From NCBI GenBank assembly GCA_963708025.1, contig CAVPSB010000029.1:32001-96000 (forward strand): 64,000 nt of DNA. Direction: 5' to 3'. The stretch's first letter is position 1, and each line of letters begins with the position of its first letter. Below are positions 6,830-16,524 of the stretch, piece by piece. Position numbers and translations under genes: made by a program. The notes under the pieces are model-generated. The model saw only the letters and a program-made list of their open reading frames with translations, had not been told where the DNA came from and did no database searches. Origin of the DNA: an uncultured Candidatus Rokubacteria bacterium. GTDB taxonomy: Bacteria; Methylomirabilota; Methylomirabilia; Rokubacteriales; DASRDR01.

Positions 6830-7168
6830 GTGACGGGTCGGACGGACGTCCACTCGCTGACCATGCTGCTCGTCGTTGCGGTGAGCATACTTGCCTTCGG
6901 GACGGGCTTGTTCACCCTCGGTCTGCCGGACACGCCAGGTGGGCCGGCGTACTACGACGGCGATGATGACGACGCCGGAATGGTCCCGGAACGGGTCACC
7001 GGAGTGCCCCAGCCGGCGGTCGTTGACACGCTCGCGCCGTTCGCCGCCCTCGATTCCGCCGATCGGGCAGTGCCGCGCGCCTCGTCAGCACGGCCTCCCG
7101 TCTTCCGGCCAGCCGATCTGCTGCAACGCGCTCCCCCACTCGCGCCGCCCGCCGGCCTTCTGATCTAG
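6830..7168 (+). CDS. Small membrane/secreted protein with C-terminal RAPP motif (putative arrest-peptide leader); start 6830 (GTG) or 6863 (ATG)
   Basis: Hydrophobic N-terminal segment, acidic YYDGDDDD, LLQRAPP near the end; TTGACA at 6794, GGAGG at 6813. Confidence 0.55.
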   Translation: MTGRTDVHSLTMLLVVAVSILAFGTGLFTLGLPDTPGGPAYYDGDDDDAGMVPERVTGVPQPAVVDTLAPFAALDSADRAVPRASSARPPVFRPADLLQRAPPLAPPAGLLI

Positions 7169-7353
7169 CCCAGTCGGGTACCCTGGATGCAGCGAGGGCG
7201 ACTTCGCCCCCGGGAAGTCGCGCTCACGATCCGGGATGAGTCTCGGGCCGGCCATTGCGCGTCGGCGTCGCGCCGGACGTCGTGGCCGGCGACGAGTCGG
7301 CGCGGCGCCAGCAGCGAGATGGCGCATCCTGATAACCGCAGGCAGGGGGAGCC

Positions 7354-8934
7354 TTGATCGCCATTGTCGGACAGAGCGTGCTCGATCGCGTGAAGCTGCC
7401 CGGTCGCCCCTGGGTGGAGCGACTGGGCGGCGCGCCGTTGTTCGCCGGCCAGGTGCTGGCGGCGGCGGGGGTCCCGGCCGTCATCCTCACCCGTGGCGCG
7501 ACCCCGGAATTGCGCCGGCCGCTCCATGCCCTCGGGCTTCCCGTCATCGAGGGGCCGGCCGCCGGCTCGTGCGTCTCCGAGATGGTTCTCTTCCCGGACG
7601 GCTCGTGTTCCGACAGCTTCCACGCCTTCGGAGATCCTTTCACGCCGGCCGATGTCCGCACCTGGATGGCCCCGGGGCTGGCGGAGGCGCGCGCCGTGGT
7701 CTGCGGGGCTCAGTGGCGGGACGACTTCCGGGCGCCGACCGTGGCCGCGCTGGCCAGCGCCGGGCGGCCCGTCTATCTCGACGGACAGGGACCGCTGCGC
7801 GCCCCGCGGACCGGCCCGATCTGTCTCGAGGGCCCGCTGCCTCGGGCGCTGCTCCGCCACCTGACCGTCCTCAAGCTCGCCGAGGAGGAAGCCCGGGTGG
7901 TGCTCGGCGGCGTCGACGCGACGGCGGCCCAGGACCTGGGAGTGCCCATCGTCGTGGTGACGCTGGGTGAGCGAGGCGCCGTCGTTCTCGCCGGCGGACG
8001 GGCGACGGCGGTCGGCGTCGAGCCGGTCCGGGACCTCGCCGACGCCGTCGGTGCCGGCGACGCATTCCTCGCGCTCATGGCCGCGGCCGCGGCGGACGGG
8101 GTCTCGCCCGTGGAGGCCGCCCGCGTCGCCTGCGCCGGTACGGCCGACATGCTTCGTCGCCGCCGGCCGGATGCGAGCAGCGGTGGCCCGGAGCCAGTCG
8201 GTGGCCCGCGTGAGTCGAGGAGGCCGACCGCCCCGCCAAAGGCGGTGCTGTTCGACTTCGGGGGTACGCTCGATGCGGATGGCGTCGCGTGGAAGGAGCG
8301 CGTGTACCGGCTCTTCCACGACGATGGTCTCGCCGGCGCCCGAAGTGAGTTCGATCCCATCTTCTACGCGGCAGACGACGCGCTGGTCGGCGCCATCCCC
8401 GGCACCCTGTCGTTCGGGGACACCGTACTCCGGCTGTTCCGCGGCGTTGCCAGCGGCCTCGGGCTGGCGGCACCCGAGCGCGAGGCGGTTCGCCTGGCCG
8501 CCCGATTCCGGGCAGACTCGCAGGCGCGACTGCAGGCCAACACAGCGCTCCTGCGGCGCCTCGCCGCCCGCTACCGGCTGGGCATCGTCTCGAACTTCTA
8601 CGGCAACCTGGCCACGGTCTGCGAGGAGGTGGGACTTCGCCCCTACTTCGCCACCCTCGTCGATTCGGCCGTCGTCGGATGCCGCAAGCCCGAGCCGGAG
8701 ATCTTCCACCGGGCCCTCGCTCATCTCGGCGTCGAGCCCGCCGCTGCCGTGTTCGTGGGCGACTCGCTTCGCCGGGACATGGCCGGCGCCGGCAACGTCG
8801 GCATGCCTCACGTGTGGCTCACCCCCGTCCCGGCGCCCGGGTCCGTCGGCGGCTCCGCTCACGTCAGCGGCCCGTGCTGCCCGGAGGACGACGTCATCCA
8901 TTCGCTCACCGAGCTCGACGAGCTGTTGCTGTGA
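7354..8934 (+). CDS. PfkB/ribokinase-family kinase fused to a HAD-superfamily hydrolase
   Basis: PfkB: LDGQG, LKLAEEEA, VTLGERG, DAVGAGDAF. HAD: LFDFGGTL, VSN, RKPEPEIF, VGDS..RDM.GA. Confidence 0.8.
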   Translation: MIAIVGQSVLDRVKLPGRPWVERLGGAPLFAGQVLAAAGVPAVILTRGATPELRRPLHALGLPVIEGPAAGSCVSEMVLFPDGSCSDSFHAFGDPFTPADVRTWMAPGLAEARAVVCGAQWRDDFRAPTVAALASAGRPVYLDGQGPLRAPRTGPICLEGPLPRALLRHLTVLKLAEEEARVVLGGVDATAAQDLGVPIVVVTLGERGAVVLAGGRATAVGVEPVRDLADAVGAGDAFLALMAAAAADGVSPVEAARVACAGTADMLRRRRPDASSGGPEPVGGPRESRRPTAPPKAVLFDFGGTLDADGVAWKERVYRLFHDDGLAGARSEFDPIFYAADDALVGAIPGTLSFGDTVLRLFRGVASGLGLAAPEREAVRLAARFRADSQARLQANTALLRRLAARYRLGIVSNFYGNLATVCEEVGLRPYFATLVDSAVVGCRKPEPEIFHRALAHLGVEPAAAVFVGDSLRRDMAGAGNVGMPHVWLTPVPAPGSVGGSAHVSGPCCPEDDVIHSLTELDELLL

Positions 8935-9668
8935 CGGACGCCTCGGCGCTCGACGGGGCGATCCTGGCCGCCGGGAGCGGCAGCCGCCTGCGCGGGGACG
9001 GCTGGACGATGCCCAAGCCCATGGTGCCGGTCGCGGGGATGCCGCTCATCGAGCACGTGATCCGGAATTTCATGGCCGCCGGCGTGACATCGCTCGTGAT
9101 CATCGTGAACGAGGAGGCCCGGGATTGCGCGCACTGGGTGCGACAGCGCTTCCCCGGCCTGGATCTCCGCTTCCTCATCCGGACGACGGCTTCGTCCCTG
9201 GAGAGCTTCCGGGAGATCGCTCGGCACGCCGTGGGTAGCCGCACGCTCGTCTCGACGGTCGATGCGTGGTGCCCGGTCGAGGACTTCGTTCGCTTCGTGG
9301 AGGCGGCCTGCCGCTGCCCGGACCCGGCGACGGTCCTGGCCGTCACCCCGTTCGTCGCGGACGAGCGGCCGCTGTGGGTGGAGATGGACGACGCCGGACG
9401 GGTGACGCAGTGCGGCGGCGATTCCGGCGCCTTCGTGACGGCGGGGATCTACCTCGTTCCGGAGCAGGTGCGCCGGATGACCCTGCCGCCGGGGCTGGGC
9501 CGACTTCGCGAATTCCTGAGCTGGCTGGTGGCGCGCGGCGAGGCCGTCTACGGGATACCCGTCCCGACCGTGATCGACGTGGATCGGACGAGCGACGTGA
9601 CGCTGGCCGAGGCGCTCGCCCGGGGCGGGCCCGGGGTCGGCGCCGCTCCCGGCGGGTCCCCTCGATGA
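8931..9668 (+). CDS. NTP transferase (sugar/polyol-phosphate nucleotidyltransferase)
   Basis: GAILAAGSGSRL...PKPMV and C-terminal IDVD; GTGA overlap with upstream stop. Confidence 0.85.
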   Translation: MTDASALDGAILAAGSGSRLRGDGWTMPKPMVPVAGMPLIEHVIRNFMAAGVTSLVIIVNEEARDCAHWVRQRFPGLDLRFLIRTTASSLESFREIARHAVGSRTLVSTVDAWCPVEDFVRFVEAACRCPDPATVLAVTPFVADERPLWVEMDDAGRVTQCGGDSGAFVTAGIYLVPEQVRRMTLPPGLGRLREFLSWLVARGEAVYGIPVPTVIDVDRTSDVTLAEALARGGPGVGAAPGGSPR

Positions 9669-10510
9669 GCGCCCACCGCTGCTGGGGCATCTTTCGCGAG
9701 CGCACCCACTCGCCCGGGCGCGAGTCCGACGATGCCGAGATCCTCCGGCTGACCGCGAAGGAGCTGGAGGCGCGCGGGTTCACCGTCAGCGTGAAGAGCC
9801 CGGACGAGCTGGACGATCCGGTCGAGACGCCCCCGCCGGCGATCTTCTTGATGTGCGAGCGGGTCAAGGTTCTACGGCTCCTCCGCGACTGGGAGGCCAC
9901 GGGCGTCTGGCTGGTCAACGCTCCGGTCGCGGTTCTCAACACCTATCGAGAACGCATGCTGGCCTCGTGGGCGGCGGCCGGAGTTCCATTCCCGGCGAGC
10001 CGCGTGGTCCGGACCGACGGGCCGCCGCCGCCCGAGCGTGAGTCCGACCAGTGGCCGATCTGGATGAAGCGCGCGGACGTGCACAGCACTCAACCCGGTG
10101 ACGTGAGTCGCATCGAGGACCGGGCGGCCCTGCACGAAGCGCTGGCGGGGTTCGCCCGGCGCGGGCTCCCGCGGGCCGTCCTCCAGCAGCACGTCGCGGG
10201 TGACCTGCTCAAGTTCTACGGGATCGGCACGGCGCCCGGGCTTGATGGTGGCGCTCCGTGGTTCCGGCACTTCTATCACCGCGATCAGGTGCTGCACGGC
10301 TACCCATTCGACCCGGGCGCGCTGGCACGGCTCACGCGACAGGCCGCCGCGGTGCTCGGGCTCGAGGTGTTCGGCGGTGACGCCATCGTCGGCCCGGATG
10401 GCCACCTCGCGCTGATCGACCTCAACGCCTGGCCGAGCTTCGCGCTGTACCGGGACGAGGCGGCCGCCGAGATCGCCGGCTACCTGGCGCGTCGGTTCAC
10501 GCGAGCGTGA
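9665..10510 (+). CDS. ATP-grasp fold protein (ITPK1/RimK-like motifs)
   Basis: P.WMKR, VLQQHVAGDLLKFYG, LGLEVFGGDAIV, LIDLNAWPSF; ATGA overlap. Confidence 0.75.
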   Translation: MSAHRCWGIFRERTHSPGRESDDAEILRLTAKELEARGFTVSVKSPDELDDPVETPPPAIFLMCERVKVLRLLRDWEATGVWLVNAPVAVLNTYRERMLASWAAAGVPFPASRVVRTDGPPPPERESDQWPIWMKRADVHSTQPGDVSRIEDRAALHEALAGFARRGLPRAVLQQHVAGDLLKFYGIGTAPGLDGGAPWFRHFYHRDQVLHGYPFDPGALARLTRQAAAVLGLEVFGGDAIVGPDGHLALIDLNAWPSFALYRDEAAAEIAGYLARRFTRA

Positions 10511-10511
10511 T

Positions 10512-11777
10512 GTGAGCGGCGGCACACGGGATCCGGGTCACGCCGCCGGGCCGTCCCCGGTCAGCCGCGCGGTCGTCGTGGCCAGCCGGGCCGCGTGTCT
10601 CGCCCCCGTTGGCGGCCTGCCGCTGGCGGTCCGCGCCGTGCTGACGCTGCGGGCGGCGGGCTTCGCCGTGAGCGTCGTGGCCGGCCCCCACGCCGGCGAG
10701 ATGAGCGCGTGGCTGAGCCGGCGGGGCATTCGCGAGGCCCCCCCCGCGCCGCCCGGGGGGCCGGCGCCCGTTCTCGTCCTCATGGGCGATGTCGTGTTCG
10801 AGCCGCGCGTGCTGGCGCCCCTGCTCGCCGCCGCCGAGCCCGGGCGGCTGCGCGTCGCGCAGAGCCCGGACGCGGCGACGGGCGAGGTCCGGGCCGGCCT
10901 CTGCCCGGAATCCGCGCTGCCGGCGCTCGAGGCCTCGCTGTCGGACGGTCAGTGCGCGCTGGGAACGGCGCTCCAGGGATTGGGTCACCTCGACGAGCCG
11001 GTTCCGTTCGGGGACGGGCTCTTCCTGGCGCTCGATGCCCGCTCCACCCCTGGCGAGCTGACGGAGGCTCTCCTGGACCACTTCGGTCGGGGGGCGGCCG
11101 CGACCGACGGGTACCTGGCCACGCTGCTCGACCGCCCTCTGTCACGCCGGCTGACCCGCTGGCTGCTGCCGTGGCCGGTGACGCCGAACCAGATCACGGT
11201 GGCCAGCATCGCGGTCGGCCTGGTCGGCGCGGTCGGCCTGGCCTCGGTCTCGTATCTCGGCCGGCTCGGCGGCGTGCTGCTCCTCCTCGTGTCCAGCGTG
11301 CTGGACGGCGTCGACGGTGAGGTGGCCCGGGCTCGCTTCGAGCAGAGCGCGGCCGGGGCGCGACTGGACTTGATCGGCGACTACGTCATTCACCTGGCCA
11401 CGTTCGCCGGCCTCGGGGTCGGGCTCGCGCGCCAGGGGCCGTCACAGCTCCTTCTCGTTGCCGCCGGGGTCCTGTTCGCCGGCGTCGCGACCGCCATCGT
11501 CGTGATGCACCGACTCGTCAACGGCCCCGTGCTGGCCCGGAGCGATGACCTGCACGACGCCGGCGCCACGGCCGGGTTGCGCGGGGCGGCGATCATGGCG
11601 CACGTCGAGAAGCTGGCCGGTCGCGACTACGTCTACCTGCTCCTGCTCTTCGCCGTCGTCGGGCGACTCGACTGGTTCGTGTCCGCGGCCGCGGTCGGCT
11701 CCTGGGCGTTCGTGATCGGCCTGATCGCCTATGAGGCCCACCAGCGCGCTGGCTCCCCCGGGAGCGCCCGGGGGTAA
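10512..11777 (+). CDS. CDP-alcohol phosphatidyltransferase with degenerate N-terminal nucleotidyltransferase-like domain (DIPPS/PIP-synthase-like)
   Basis: DG...LDRPLSR, TPNQIT, LDGVDGEVAR...GARLDLIGD (DxxDGxxAR..GxxxDxxxD). Confidence 0.85.
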   Translation: MSGGTRDPGHAAGPSPVSRAVVVASRAACLAPVGGLPLAVRAVLTLRAAGFAVSVVAGPHAGEMSAWLSRRGIREAPPAPPGGPAPVLVLMGDVVFEPRVLAPLLAAAEPGRLRVAQSPDAATGEVRAGLCPESALPALEASLSDGQCALGTALQGLGHLDEPVPFGDGLFLALDARSTPGELTEALLDHFGRGAAATDGYLATLLDRPLSRRLTRWLLPWPVTPNQITVASIAVGLVGAVGLASVSYLGRLGGVLLLLVSSVLDGVDGEVARARFEQSAAGARLDLIGDYVIHLATFAGLGVGLARQGPSQLLLVAAGVLFAGVATAIVVMHRLVNGPVLARSDDLHDAGATAGLRGAAIMAHVEKLAGRDYVYLLLLFAVVGRLDWFVSAAAVGSWAFVIGLIAYEAHQRAGSPGSARG

Positions 11778-13180: not shown

Positions 13181-13283
13181 GGCCGAAAGCCCCGTCGACC
13201 GGGACGTTGGCGCGCGGGGCCTGCCCGCGTTATCATCCTTGAGCGTCCCTCAGGGGATACCCCAGACCCGAGAAGGAGGAGGA

Positions 13284-14192
13284 ATGTTCGCGTCGGTCGA
13301 GGAGATTCAGCAGCGGTTCCAGGCCAGCCAGTACATCGCGAACCGGCGGATCGCCACCGTCGTGTACCTGGCCGTCCGGATGAACCGCCCGATCCTGGTC
13401 GAAGGCCCGGCCGGCGTCGGGAAGACGGAGCTGGCCAAGGTGCTCGCCGAGTCGCTGGGGCGGCCGCTGATCCGCCTCCAGTGCTACGAGGGGCTCGACG
13501 AGGCCAAGGCCCTGTACGAGTGGAAGTACGCCAAGCAGCTCCTCTACACCCAGATCCTCCGCGAGCGCATCGGCGACCTGGTCGCCGACGCCCCCTCCCT
13601 GACCGACGCCGTGGAGCGCGTGGCCCGGCAGGAGGACGCCTTCTTCTCCTTCCGGTTCCTGTCGCCGCGCCCCCTGCTCGGCGCGATCCTGGCCGACGAG
13701 CCCTCGGTCCTCCTGATCGACGAGATCGACAAGGCCGAGGTCGAGTTCGAGGCGTTCCTGCTCGAGGTGCTCTCGGACTGGCAGGTGTCGGTACCGGAGC
13801 TGGGCACCATCAAGGCCCGGCACCTCCCGCTGGTCGTCCTGACGTCGAACAACGCCCGCGAGCTGACCGATGGGCTGAAGCGCCGCTGCCTCCACCTGTT
13901 CATCGACTTTCCGGCGGCGGCCGAGGAGCTGGCGATCATCCGCCTCAAGGTGCCCGAGGTGTCGGAGCGCCTGGCCCACGAGGTCGTGAGGGCGGTGCAG
14001 CGGATCCGGGCCCTCGAGCTGCGCAAGGCCCCCTCGATCTCGGAGAGCCTCGACTGGGCGCGCTCCCTCGTGATCCTGAACGCCGATCGGCTCGAGCCCG
14101 GCGTCGTCGAGGCGACCCTCACGCTGCTCGTCAAGTACGAGCGCGATCTCGAGCGGGTGAAGGCGAGCCTGGACAAGGTTCTCGCCGAATAG
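13284..14192 (+). CDS. MoxR-family AAA+ ATPase (CoxD-like)
   Basis: GPAGVGKT, RLQCYEGLD, LLIDEIDK, LTSN..RELTDGLKRRC; GGAGG RBS. Confidence 0.9.
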   Translation: MFASVEEIQQRFQASQYIANRRIATVVYLAVRMNRPILVEGPAGVGKTELAKVLAESLGRPLIRLQCYEGLDEAKALYEWKYAKQLLYTQILRERIGDLVADAPSLTDAVERVARQEDAFFSFRFLSPRPLLGAILADEPSVLLIDEIDKAEVEFEAFLLEVLSDWQVSVPELGTIKARHLPLVVLTSNNARELTDGLKRRCLHLFIDFPAAAEELAIIRLKVPEVSERLAHEVVRAVQRIRALELRKAPSISESLDWARSLVILNADRLEPGVVEATLTLLVKYERDLERVKASLDKVLAE

Positions 14193-14208
14193 AACGAGGA
14201 GACAGCGC

Positions 14209-14898
14209 GTGTCCGAGACCATCGTCTCCGCGATGCTGAAGAAGACGGCCCTCTTCGGGGATCTCGCCCTCTCCGAGCGGCTGGCGCTGGCCAGCGCCAT
14301 GCGGCGGGGCGACGTTCCGAAGGACGCCCACGTCTTCCACGCCGGGGACCCCGGCCGCTCGTTCTTCCTGGTGGTGGCCGGCCGGATCAAGATCTCGCTC
14401 TCCCGGCAGGGTCGCGAGATCGTCCTCGCCGAGCTGGGTCCGGGCGACTACTTCGGCGAGTTCTCCCTCATCGACGGCCGGCCGCGCTCGGCCGACGCCA
14501 TCGCGGTGATCCGGTCCGAGGTGCTGGAGCTGCCCCAGGAGGTCTTCTTCCGCCTGCTGGACTCGAACGGCACCGTGGCCCGGAAGCTCCTCGTGGAGCT
14601 GTGCCGGCGGCTCCGGGAGGCGGACGCCCAGATCAGCACGCTGGCGACCGTGGACGCGGCCGGCCGCATCGTCCGCGGCCTGCTCAAGCTGGGCGAGCAC
14701 CACGCCCGGCGCGAGGGCGCGGACCTCATCTTCGCCAAGGCGCCCCGCCAGCGCGACGTGGCGGCGCTGGCCGGGACGACCCGGGCGACCACCTCGCGGC
14801 TGATCCGGCAGCTCACCCAGCAGGGCCTGCTGACCTTCAGCGGCCAGTCCCTCATCGTCCACGAGCGACAGGTCTTACCCGAAGACAACGTCCAGTAG
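14209..14898 (+). CDS. Crp/Fnr family transcriptional regulator
   Basis: FGEFSLIDGRPRSA cNMP-binding motif; C-terminal HTH GTTRATTSR. Confidence 0.9.
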   Translation: MSETIVSAMLKKTALFGDLALSERLALASAMRRGDVPKDAHVFHAGDPGRSFFLVVAGRIKISLSRQGREIVLAELGPGDYFGEFSLIDGRPRSADAIAVIRSEVLELPQEVFFRLLDSNGTVARKLLVELCRRLREADAQISTLATVDAAGRIVRGLLKLGEHHARREGADLIFAKAPRQRDVAALAGTTRATTSRLIRQLTQQGLLTFSGQSLIVHERQVLPEDNVQ

Positions 14899-14900
14899 CG

Positions 14901-15028
14901 GCAGGCGGGGCCGATGAGCGTCGCATCGCGTCGTCCTCGGTCGTCGCCGATCCTCAGCGTACCCGGGGTACGCCTCCGGTCGGCTCCTCCCTGCGTCCTA
15001 GCGCTGCTCGCTCCTCGGCCCCGCCCGC
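14901..15028. repeat. MITE-like repeat family 2, copy A (20-bp terminal inverted repeats)
   Basis: GCAGGCGGGGCCGATGAGCG ... CGCTCCTCGGCCCCGCCCGC (18/20 complementary); inverted homolog at 54354. Confidence 0.8.
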
Positions 15029-15048
15029 AAGAACGTACTTCATTCGCT

Positions 15049-15088
15049 CCCTCTCCCTCCCTCGGGAGGGAGAGGGCGGGGGTGAGGG
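15049..15088. repeat. CCCTCTCCC..GGGAGAGGG..GGGGTGAGGG hairpin (REP-like intergenic motif)
   Basis: Perfect 12-bp stem CCCTCTCCCTCC/GGAGGGAGAGGG followed by GGGGTGAGGG. Confidence 0.6.
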
Positions 15089-15105
15089 TGGGAGGGGCGC
15101 GCTAG

Positions 15106-16524
15106 ATGGACGAACGGATCCTCGAGTTCATCGGAGACCTCCGCAAGGCCGAGATCCGCGTCTCGACCACGGAGGCGCTCGACGCGCTCCAGGCCGCCGC
15201 CGAGATCGGTCTGAGCGATCGCCACGACTTCCGGGCGGCCCTGGCCGCGACCCTGGTCAAGGAGTCGCGCGACCTGCCGGCCTTCGACCGGCTCTTCGAC
15301 CTCTACTTCTTCGACCTCCAGGCCCTCGGCGCCGAGACCGCCAAGGCGCTGGGCCGCAAGGACCCGTGGGCCCGCGCCCTGCTCGAGCGCCTGCTGGCCG
15401 AGGGCGACCTCGACGTCGATCCGCTCACCGAGCTCCTGCTCACGGCCGAGGCGCCCGAGCTGGAGCTGGCGGTCCGCCAGGGTGGCCGGGCGGTCGGACT
15501 GGAGCGGCTCTTCTACTTTCTCCAGGTCGGCTACTTCTCCCGGCGGATCTGGGACCAGTTCCCGTGGCAGGAGATCGAGGGCGACCTGGAAGCGCTGCTC
15601 CGCGCCGCCGAGGCGGAAGGGATGGACCCCGGGGCCCTGGCCCGGCTCCGCACCTACATGGAGCTGCGGATGGAGGCCTTCCGGCGGCTGATCCGCCAGC
15701 ACGTCGAGCGCGAGCTGGGCCGCCGCGGCTACCGGCAGGAGGAGCGGCTGCGGCGCGAGCTGCTCGCCGACAAGCCGCTCTTCACGCTGTCGGCCGACGA
15801 GGTCGCGCAGATGAAGGCGGTCGTCGCGCGCCTGGCTCGCAAGATCAAAGACGCCCTCGCCCTCCGGCAGCGGCGCGAGCAGGAAGGGAAGCTCGATCCG
15901 AAGCGGACGTTCCGGGCGAGCCTCCAGTACGACGGGGTGCCGCTCGACATCCGGTGGCGCCACCGGCGCCGGGAGAAGCCCCGGCTGGTCACCCTCTGCG
16001 ACGTCTCCGACTCGGTCCGCAACGCCTCGCGCTTCATGCTGCAGCTCGTCTGGAACCTGCAGGAGTGCTTCTCCCGGGTCCAGAGCTTCGTCTTCGTCTC
16101 GGAGATCGCCGAGGTGTCGGAGGCCTTTCGCACGCTGCCGGTGGAGCGGGCGGTCGAGTACGCCCTCGGCGGGGCGCGGGTGGACTACCACAGCCGCTCG
16201 GACTTCGGCTACGCCTTCGCCCGGTTCACCCGGGAGTCGCTGGAGCGGCTCGACCGGAAGACGACGCTCCTCGTCCTCGGGGATGCCCGCAACAACTACA
16301 ACGACCCCCAGGCGTGGGCGATCCGCCTCATGCGGGAGCGGGTGAAGGGGATCATCTGGCTCAACCCCGAAGGGCAGTGGGGCTGGGGGGTGGGCGACTC
16401 CGTCATGCCGCTCTACGCCCCCCACTGCGACGTCGTCCGGGAGTGCCGGACGCTCGCCCAGCTCGCCGAGGTGGTGGACGGCCTGCTCCAGGGCTGGTGG
16501 CGCCGCCGCGGCGCCGTCCGCTGA
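15106..16524 (+). CDS. VWA-domain protein (CoxE-like)
   Basis: LCDVSDSV MIDAS, SDFG, LGDARNN, IIWLNPE..W..GDS.M. Confidence 0.9.
   Translation: MDERILEFIGDLRKAEIRVSTTEALDALQAAAEIGLSDRHDFRAALAATLVKESRDLPAFDRLFDLYFFDLQALGAETAKALGRKDPWARALLERLLAEGDLDVDPLTELLLTAEAPELELAVRQGGRAVGLERLFYFLQVGYFSRRIWDQFPWQEIEGDLEALLRAAEAEGMDPGALARLRTYMELRMEAFRRLIRQHVERELGRRGYRQEERLRRELLADKPLFTLSADEVAQMKAVVARLARKIKDALALRQRREQEGKLDPKRTFRASLQYDGVPLDIRWRHRRREKPRLVTLCDVSDSVRNASRFMLQLVWNLQECFSRVQSFVFVSEIAEVSEAFRTLPVERAVEYALGGARVDYHSRSDFGYAFARFTRESLERLDRKTTLLVLGDARNNYNDPQAWAIRLMRERVKGIIWLNPEGQWGWGVGDSVMPLYAPHCDVVRECRTLAQLAEVVDGLLQGWWRRRGAVR

Follow-up and report, generated by a model that had tools for sequence, protein, structure and literature searches.

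Inositol lipids are regarded as uncommon in bacteria, and a "Kennedy-like" second route to them, as yet untested, has been proposed for Bacteroidetes. The available text of Heaver et al. 2022 describes a "putative alternative inositol lipid cluster", likewise untested, that adjoins the gene for myo-inositol-phosphate synthase (MIPS) in Bacteroides vulgatus and Prevotella (PMC9246714). In this cluster, a HAD hydrolase gene sits together with genes for an NTP transferase and a CDP-alcohol phosphatidyltransferase, while a carboxypeptidase-regulatory-domain protein and a homologue of lysyl-PG synthase are encoded nearby; a fusion of the CDP-alcohol transferase (CDPOH) with the HAD is reported there for Prevotella veroralis (PMC9246714). 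Here we describe an operon of four genes, encoding a PfkB-HAD fusion, a nucleotidyltransferase (NTase), an ATP-grasp protein, and a CDP-alcohol phosphotransferase, at positions 7354–11777 of a 64-kb window (the whole stretch of DNA analyzed, to which coordinates refer unless a contig or locus is named) from an uncultured Candidatus Rokubacteria bacterium.

In hyperthermophiles, the IPCT/DIPPS enzyme for di-myo-inositol phosphate (4mnd) and also AF2299 (4o6m) carry an NTase-type domain N-terminal to a six-helix CDP-alcohol phosphotransferase. In the ADP/GDP-heptose pathway, a kinase (HldE/HddA), the HAD phosphatase GmhB, and an NTase (HldE/HddC) shift a phosphate to a position that can be activated by the NTase. 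Set beside these systems, the window operon is, in our judgment, probably a salvage variant, independent of MIPS and acquired by horizontal insertion, of a widespread, biochemically untested cluster for a CDP-activated, inositol-type head group. The original prediction had read the four genes as a path from inositol or polyol salvage to a CDP-activated head group; the kinase, the interchange of MIPS and PfkB, the kinship of the transferase, and the co-conservation of the genes speak for this reading, while the role of terminal phosphatase that it gave to the HAD has been weakened.

Operon layout and predicted activities of the four genes

Four co-oriented open reading frames (ORFs) on the + strand, at 7354–8934, 8931–9668, 9665–10510, and 10512–11777, are joined by a GTGA overlap (8931–8934), an ATGA overlap (9665–9668), and a TGA-T-GTG junction with a 1-nt gap (10508–10514); reading of the ORFs and junctions confirmed the predicted arrangement. 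The GC content of the window is ~73%, and that at third codon positions is 0.87–0.92 in the two operon ORFs listed by the ORF filter, which is the bias of genuine genes. Gene 1 (7354–8934; 526 aa, TTG start) encodes a PfkB-family kinase fused to a HAD-family hydrolase; its PfkB domain (7354–8169; residues 1–272) is a predicted ATP-dependent myo-inositol kinase, and its HAD domain (8233–8934; residues ~294–526) contains a match to the Pfam Hydrolase model at residues 296–483. Gene 2 (8931–9668; 245 aa), whose GTG start overlaps the stop of gene 1, encodes the NTase; gene 3 (9665–10510; 281 aa), whose ATG start overlaps the stop of gene 2, encodes a member of an ATP-grasp family without a Pfam model; gene 4 (10512–11777; 421 aa) encodes an NTase-like N-terminal domain followed by a membrane CDP-alcohol phosphotransferase.

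The N-terminal domain of gene 1 matches PF00294 with 46.4 bits (cut-off 25.8) and belongs to the PfkB family. Its key residues are D11, G25-G26, D143-x-Q145-x3-R149 (nt 7780–7800), K174, E179, and G233-A-G-D236 (nt 8050–8061), and the motifs LDGQG, LKLAEEEA, and GAGD on which the original prediction had drawn are all found in the translation. Across an alignment of 42 PfkB-family sequences (A2), G25-G26 and G233-A-G-D236 are invariant, and conservation at D11, G26, D143, Q145, R149, and D236 is complete or no lower than 90%. The segment corresponding to the NXXE magnesium motif reads A176-E-E-E179, with an invariant Glu and with Ala, Gly, or Ser, not Asn or Asp, in the first position; Asp replacing the Asn of NXXE occurs in other family members, according to the available text of PMC5931981.

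A model of the PfkB domain built with 41 homologues (pLDDT 92.7) had as its top two matches among 48,161 PDB chains the known myo-inositol kinases TM0415 (Z 30.4, 2.2 Å, 257 residues) and MI3K_TK (Z 27.6), followed in third place by human ribokinase (Z 25.8); Foldseek agreed, with ranks 1–4 all occupied by TM0415 entries. The inositol contacts given in the available description of these kinases are D12, G26, Q136, R140, and D219 in MI3K_TK and D11, N78, Q141, and R145 in TM0415, in which D139 sits at the magnesium site (PMC5931981). The spacing of D143, Q145, and R149 in gene 1 is identical to that of D139, Q141, and R145 in TM0415, and all five MI3K_TK-type contact positions are matched. The GXGD motif of the family reads T/A-V-G-A-G-D (TVGAGD in the host), which is the ATP type, and the RxGRGD motif of pyrophosphate-dependent ribokinase-family kinases, as defined in the available text of PMC5931981 (R229 and R232 of TM0415), is not present in the family alignment, which bears out the claim that GAGD marks an ATP-type rather than a pyrophosphate-type kinase. 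The assignment of the domain as a predicted myo-inositol kinase, which had been part of the original prediction, is therefore largely supported by the modeled structure and by the retained contact residues of the pocket.

Gene 2 matches NTP_transf_3 with 52.6 bits, carries G15-x-G17-x-R19 (nt 8973–8987), and is 59–62% identical to the cluster NTases of a sister family (f2, described below); it is a predicted cytidylyltransferase for inositol phosphate or a derivative.

Gene 4 matches CDP-OH_P_transf (PF01066) with 36.1 bits (cut-off 22), and the full signature D265-x2-D-G-x2-A-R-x8-G-x3-D-x3-D290 (nt 11304–11381) is found both in its translation and in its alignment with AF2299. Its N-terminal NTase-like domain (~residues 1–190) reaches only 18.8 bits against NTP_transf_3 (cut-off 27), and no GxGxR loop, as expected of a competent cytidylyltransferase domain, was found in residues 1–60; this fits the presence of a separate NTase gene in the operon. 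The best NCBIfam matches of gene 4 are IPCT/DIPPS (2.5e-16), archaetidylinositol-phosphate synthase, and PIP synthase, all far under their cut-offs; against the IPCT/DIPPS equivalog NF041135 it scores 59.7 bits, under the 580 required, and over residues 197–312 only. Its best PDB matches are AF2299 (1.6e-14) and IPCT/DIPPS (4mnd; 3.2e-10), with the juxtamembrane segment included in the match. The view that the transferase is akin to IPCT/DIPPS has held up, its nearest relatives being IPCT/DIPPS, AF2299, and the archaetidylinositol-phosphate and PIP synthases.

In a quick maximum-likelihood tree of 63 transferase rows (SH-aLRT support only, midpoint root), gene 4 is sister (support 100) to 15 stand-alone enzymes of the host's own family (f1) together with metagenome locus L036, apart from the canonical cluster transferases. 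Its identity to the f1 type is 44–54% (42–52% over tblastn segments) and to the cluster type 28–37%; together with the tree, these identities set gene 4 apart from the cluster type and indicate that the transferase of the window-type operon is a paralogue. A scan of genome contigs with gene 4 returned five distant loci (29–37% identity) with no surrounding cluster. A paralogue of gene 4 (53% identical) is also found in the host genome, at C34:43155–48200 (L014 8147–13197), where it stands without NTase, ATP-grasp, or HAD-IA genes and is followed by LPG_synthase_TM, B12-binding radical SAM, and Cof-type HAD genes; strong orthologues of this paralogue (E<1e-60) occur in 15/20 f1 genomes, and MIPS was not detected in any of these 15.

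A Pfam scan of gene 3 gave no match, including to PF05770 (ITPK) and PF08443 (RimK). Its model (pLDDT 94.9) has a confident three-domain ATP-grasp fold, which places it in that superfamily, and its structural matches are ArgX (Z 22.2, 251 residues), RimK (21.8), synapsin (20.5), Ddl (~20), PPIP5K2 (19.3), and ITPK1 (18.8); Foldseek finds the same families. Residues invariant in the family include R11, K135, D146, D252-x-N254 (nt 10418–10426), and P257. A total of 2424 homologues at E<=1e-5 were found among 7577 candidates, with 1012 representatives at E<=0.001, and the sources and automatic taxon labels of the matches include Rokubacteria, Binatia, Gemmatimonadota, Pseudomonadota, and Bacteroidota; a database look-up returned only "hypothetical protein" clusters. 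Among 93 members scanned with Pfam, ATPgrasp_ST was matched in 24, PF08443 (RimK) in 18, and PF05770 (Ins134_P3_kin) in 17, all weakly (best E 0.002–0.007). The family profile weakly matches PsnB, AtITPK4, and RimK, and the E-values with which it aligns "KFY" and "D-x-N-x-[WFL]-P-S-F" to plant and human ITPKs (5e-6 and 4e-4) are comparable to that for RimK (3e-5). The available text of PMC6900528 gives H167, K199, and R212 as the inositol-phosphate contacts of human ITPK1, which is reported to phosphorylate Ins(1)P and Ins(3)P, not free inositol; K199 is the only one of the three for which an equivalent was placed, by alignment of "KFY" with the "KFY" of AtITPK4. A match to 7DRM was considered as a clue to the substrate and dropped, 7DRM being the graspetide ligase PsnB and uninformative in this respect.

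The HAD domain of gene 1 matches PF00702 with 77.8 bits and shares 52–61% identity with HADs that stand alone in related clusters. Motifs II (VSN), III (K-P), and IV (GDSxxxD) are invariant in 10/10 sequences of the HAD alignment (A3), consistent with membership in the superfamily. HAD phosphatases and phosphomutases have motif I DxDx(T/V), in which the Asp at position +2 is the general acid/base. In gene 1, motif I reads F-D301-F-G-G-T-L-D, with the nucleophile Asp kept and Asp+2 replaced by Gly, and in all ten members, from high-GC and low-GC clusters, it reads F-D-[FY]-G-G-T-[LI]-D (window 8254–8274). A Gly at this position is unusual for a HAD-IA "phosphatase"; because the general acid is Gly in 10/10 members, a function as ordinary phosphomonoesterase is doubtful, and so is the predicted role as plain terminal phosphatase.

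A conserved cluster with MIPS and its probable variant in the host genome

The comparison set consisted of 41 related genomes, among them the host genome (G000), 20 other f1 genomes, and 17 genomes of a sister family (f2); one unpublished genome (G038) is counted in these tallies as an f2 row without ATP-grasp, MIPS, PfkB, or GFO and with a weak CDPOH match, GFO being a GFO/IDH/MocA oxidoreductase. The ATP-grasp gene occurs in the host, in 11/17 f2 genomes, and in 0/20 other f1 genomes, while an orthologue of the PfkB domain was found in the host only among the 41 genomes (0/20 other f1 genomes). The gene order in all five f2 loci fetched is HAD, NTase, ATP-grasp, class-III aminotransferase (AT3), GFO, CDPOH, CopD-like membrane protein, and LPG_synthase_TM, the last having HpnL as its best NCBIfam match; the HAD in these five loci carries no PfkB. 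A metagenome scan added 80 loci, many of the resulting 85 being short.

Genes were counted within 8 kb of ATP-grasp in the 20 well-flanked f2 and metagenome loci, that is, those extending at least 4 kb leftward and at least 6 kb rightward of it; two of these loci (L103 and L107) are near-identical. HAD, NTase, and CDPOH are each present in 20/20 loci, AT3 and GFO each in 16/20, the flippase-like LPG_synthase_TM gene in 12/20, MIPS in 10/20 (two of these ten loci being near-identical), CopD-like and MlaE genes each in 5/20, and PfkB in 0/20. The presence of HAD, NTase, and CDPOH near ATP-grasp in every locus argues that the arrangement of the operon is not due to chance, and the lack of co-conservation that would have spoken against the original prediction was not seen. 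The partners are also found fused: representative proteins include NTase-ATP-grasp fusions (6), one HAD-NTase-ATP-grasp fusion, an ATP-grasp-HAD fusion, and an ATP-grasp-CDPOH fusion (P0137). The PfkB-domain family is small, with 61 metagenome homologues among 8000 scored candidates; 20 of the 61 are PfkB-HAD fusions, and several matches lie on contigs equal in size to contigs with ATP-grasp matches.

A MIPS gene (PF07994 and PF01658) is present in 21/85 loci, following HAD in low-GC loci and the transferase in several high-GC loci, and some MIPS-bearing clusters also hold MlaE, MlaF, and MlaD. In the host genome (99.7% complete), no match to PF07994 was found, while controls were positive in B. 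thetaiotaomicron, T. maritima, and H. volcanii, and a tblastn search of it with three cluster MIPS proteins found nothing. The predicted absence of MIPS is thereby upheld, and so is its interchange with PfkB: MIPS lies in half of the well-flanked homologous clusters, and the host, without a detectable MIPS, has an operon that carries PfkB instead. Searches of the host genome for IolG and IMPase were uninformative: none of its 27 GFO paralogues scored above the IolG cut-off, and its four IMPase-family genes are matched in all 14 control genomes. The best IolG-like match in the host, at C12:7271–8249, is split over two frames (model positions 2–206 and 201–330), which could reflect a frameshift or an assembly error.

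Two further observations concern the surroundings of the related clusters. In the low-GC loci L101, L090, L097, and L085, an MlaE-MlaF-MlaD module for lipid transport lies between NTase and ATP-grasp, and the gene for a MarR regulator is placed ahead of the operon. Directly upstream of the f2 cluster in genome G027 (L033, 910–4000) are genes encoding a thiamine pyrophosphate-dependent decarboxylase (with a phosphonopyruvate-decarboxylase-like domain pair), an NTase, and a long-branch CDP-alcohol transferase; this module looks like a head-group module of the CDP-aminoethylphosphonate type.

Orthologues of AT3 (78% identical) and GFO (62%) stand side by side on another contig of the host genome (C30:85520–87862). 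The GFO orthologue is found in the host and in 10/11 f2 genomes with ATP-grasp (11/12 ATP-grasp genomes in all) and in 0/20 f1 genomes; because its occurrence tracks that of ATP-grasp across genomes, the AT3-GFO pair appears to belong functionally with the operon. The probable role of the pair is conversion of a ring hydroxyl into an amine. The surrounding region (C30:77000–96000, L034) contains universal-stress and CBS-domain genes as well as genes encoding a phosphonate-type ABC binding protein, a methyltransferase, and a GH3-family adenylating enzyme.

The flanks of the operon are those of the host family. The flanking MoxR gene has a match in 20/20 f1 genomes and is 84–91% identical in 19 of them, and the contig is therefore assigned to this family. 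All six f1 loci fetched contain, in this order, M20, M48, MFS, MoxR, (Crp), and VWA genes, with M48 and MFS adjacent and the operon lacking; the four genes thus represent an insertion between 6933 and 11954. Its left edge is formed by 420 bp of intergenic DNA (6934–7353), with gene 1 on one side and the divergently oriented M48 peptidase gene on the other; this is the presumed promoter region. A search for direct or inverted repeats flanking the insertion found no meaningful ones, only short GC-rich chance matches. The downstream MFS gene, which has its best, though weak, match in the organophosphate antiporter family, was considered as an inositol importer or cluster member and rejected, being the native neighbor of M48 in 6/6 relatives. 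Further downstream (13239–16524), a pair of genes encoding a MoxR AAA ATPase and a CoxE-type VWA protein is conserved across the family; a Crp-family regulator (14209–14898) lies between them in the host and in genome G005 and is not found in the five g5 loci examined.

Proposed pathway and alternative readings

The scheme that we consider most likely, and to which we give somewhat better than even chances, leads from the PfkB kinase through the NTase-made CDP-alcohol to transfer by gene 4. Imported myo-inositol would be phosphorylated by the PfkB domain with ATP, replacing MIPS; the NTase would make the CDP-alcohol; and gene 4, which is DIPPS/AF2299-like, would transfer the phospho-head group to an acceptor. 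A membrane lipid is favored as acceptor because related clusters carry HpnL/MprF-type flippase-like and Mla genes. For ATP-grasp and HAD we weakly favor a role on soluble intermediates before the NTase, by which the phosphate would be repositioned: an ITPK-like kinase step would convert Ins-3-P to InsP2, and the original phosphate would then be removed, by analogy with the kinase/HAD/NTase logic of the ADP-heptose pathway. The recurrent fusions of ATP-grasp to the NTase, an enzyme that requires a phosphomonoester, may suit a kinase step that comes first. The original prediction had made ATP-grasp a late modifier of the head group; this role is no better supported than that of a kinase.

Several results weigh against this scheme, and some of them bear on alternatives. 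In comparisons by sequence profile alone, fructokinases (2qhp, 2e-19) outscore TM0415 (5.6e-10) and MI3K (2.8e-8), the profile of the PfkB family scoring highest with fructokinases and KDG kinase, and the contact residues of the PfkB domain were matched by numbering, by spacing, and by the 257 residues aligned at 2.2 Å rather than in a printed structural alignment. No specific similarity of gene 2 to the solved inositol-phosphate cytidylyltransferases was found, its best matches being sugar-1-phosphate NTases such as MurU, GlmU, and RmlA. In seven of the 11 f2 genomes that bear the cluster, neither a MIPS match nor this PfkB was found, so the scheme does not explain how inositol phosphate is supplied there, and the cluster GFO reaches only 58 bits against IolG and is not IolG-like. 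The profile scores of PfkB and the matches of the NTase would fit a route without inositol, in which a PfkB sugar kinase, a HAD phosphatase or mutase, and a sugar-1-phosphate NTase salvage a sugar or heptose for a glycan, as in the order of the ADP-heptose steps, and the transferase is unrelated. We regard such a route as very improbable: the structural neighbors and pocket residues of PfkB are those of inositol kinases, MIPS is embedded in ten of the 20 homologous clusters, the transferase is present in every one of them and fused to ATP-grasp in P0137, and no glycosyltransferase is conserved in the cluster.

Three other adverse points concern the product and the later steps of the CDP-inositol scheme. 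The Pfam scan and the neighboring genes revealed no flippase or Mla gene beside the window operon. The gene 4 clade is found in 15/20 f1 genomes without NTase, ATP-grasp, or MIPS, which leaves room for a different donor and acceptor. The lack of Asp+2 in 10/10 HADs counts against a phosphate-repositioning step and against a terminal phosphatase alike. The first of these points, together with the kinship of gene 4 to IPCT/DIPPS and AF2299 noted above, would be in line with a soluble product, CDP-inositol being joined to another inositol or polyol phosphate and the HAD then dephosphorylating the condensation product to a compatible solute resembling di-myo-inositol phosphate, not a lipid; the CDPOH-HAD fusion reported for Prevotella veroralis, in the available text of PMC9246714, would also suit a phosphatase acting right after the transferase. 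This alternative seems rather unlikely, however, as flippase-like genes in 12 and MlaE in five of the 20 related loci point to a membrane lipid, the HAD is without its general acid, and the ATP-grasp protein, which is always present, is left without a role.

The remaining points concern ATP-grasp: the ITPK Pfam model finds weak matches in only 17/93 members, and in its global structure gene 3 lies nearer to ligases (ArgX and RimK, Z 22) than to ITPK1 (Z 18.8). Rather than a kinase, it may be a carboxylate-amine or carboxylate-hydroxyl ligase that (amino)acylates an inositol or inosamine head group, giving a charge-modified lipid similar to lysyl-PG that would be exported by the MprF-type flippase-like protein. 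Its closest folds (ArgX/LysX, RimK, PsnB, and Ddl) are consistent with this possibility, as are the AT3-GFO pair, a possible source of an amine nucleophile present in 16/20 clusters, and the LPG_synthase_TM/HpnL flippase-like gene in 12/20. On the other hand, ATP-grasp is kept in the 4/20 clusters without aminotransferase and oxidoreductase, its repeated fusion to a soluble NTase is in keeping with action ahead of activation, ITPKs align with its Mg-site and "KFY" motifs, and no gene that would supply a carboxylate is conserved in the cluster. Among the alternatives to the scheme, we take the ligase to be the least unlikely, although still well short of even chances.

A bolder interpretation, which we put forward only tentatively and consider rather improbable, is that the core of HAD, NTase, ATP-grasp, and transferase forms an undescribed route in which an ITPK-like ATP-grasp kinase and the atypical HAD without Asp+2 reposition the phosphate of Ins-3-P, supplied by MIPS or, in the host, by an inositol kinase, enabling Kennedy-type, CDP-inositol-dependent synthesis of inositol phospholipids and, with GFO and AT3, of amino-inositol (inosamine) phospholipids. 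If true, inosamine phospholipids would be a new class of zwitterionic lipids, widespread in soil, sediment, and gut bacteria. The route proposed for Bacteroidetes appears to belong to a much larger conserved cluster, with 2424 homologues of the ATP-grasp protein, and newly identified conserved partners are the Pfam-less ATP-grasp family, the class-III aminotransferase, and the GFO-type oxidoreductase, none of which is mentioned in the available text of the 2022 paper (PMC9246714). In the window, a natural variant was found in which a predicted inositol kinase takes the place of MIPS; as a compact, substrate-fed operon of four genes, it makes the product and the assignment of steps directly testable by expression with inositol.

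Comparison with known systems

In the literature searched, nothing on this gene set was found beyond PMC9246714. The original prediction had stated that no characterized pathway has this exact set; this holds for the literature searched, but the subset of NTase, CDPOH, and HAD adjoining MIPS had already been flagged, untested, in Bacteroidetes (available text of PMC9246714). CpgD of Caulobacter was considered as the same system and rejected, as it is an NTase that forms CDP-glycerate according to the part of PMC12275187 available.

The known inositol kinases MI3K of Thermococcus kodakarensis (3w4s/4xf7) and TM0415 of Thermotoga maritima (1vk4/5ysp) share with gene 1 the D-x-Q-x3-R motif, the N-terminal Asp, the GG pair, and the catalytic Asp. 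However, gene 1 is only ~20% identical to them, carries TVGAGD where the pyrophosphate-dependent TM0415 has RxGRGD, and is fused to a HAD in a biosynthetic rather than a catabolic operon. The heptose pathway resembles the window set in having a PfkB kinase, a HAD, and an NTase in series; the window set differs from it in the class of substrate, in a HAD without Asp+2, and in the added ATP-grasp and CDP-alcohol transferase. With IPCT/DIPPS, the window shares the logic of a polyol phosphate activated by an NTase, and gene 4 has the same domain order and complete DxxDGxxAR...G...D...D signature as IPCT/DIPPS and AF2299; in contrast, a kinase and not MIPS would be the source of inositol phosphate, the NTase is encoded by a separate gene, and ATP-grasp and HAD are extra partners.

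The closest comparison is with the cluster of Heaver et al. (PMC9246714), to which the following applies as far as the available text of that paper goes. The low-GC metagenome loci identified here have exactly the same make-up as that cluster. The words "ATP-grasp" and "aminotransferase" each have 0 occurrences in this text, and neither the oxidoreductase gene nor a variant with a kinase is mentioned in it. We infer that the two gaps in the locus tags given there (13095, 13105, and 13115) fit ATP-grasp and flippase-like genes, orthology to the BVU genes being drawn from gene order only. The window shares NTase, CDP-alcohol transferase, and HAD with this cluster, while the adjacency to MIPS is not shared, MIPS being absent from the window and not found in the host genome. 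The window operon thus differs from the cluster of Heaver et al. in that an inositol-kinase-like PfkB replaces MIPS, in that its transferase is of another clade, and in its occurrence in a high-GC soil lineage.

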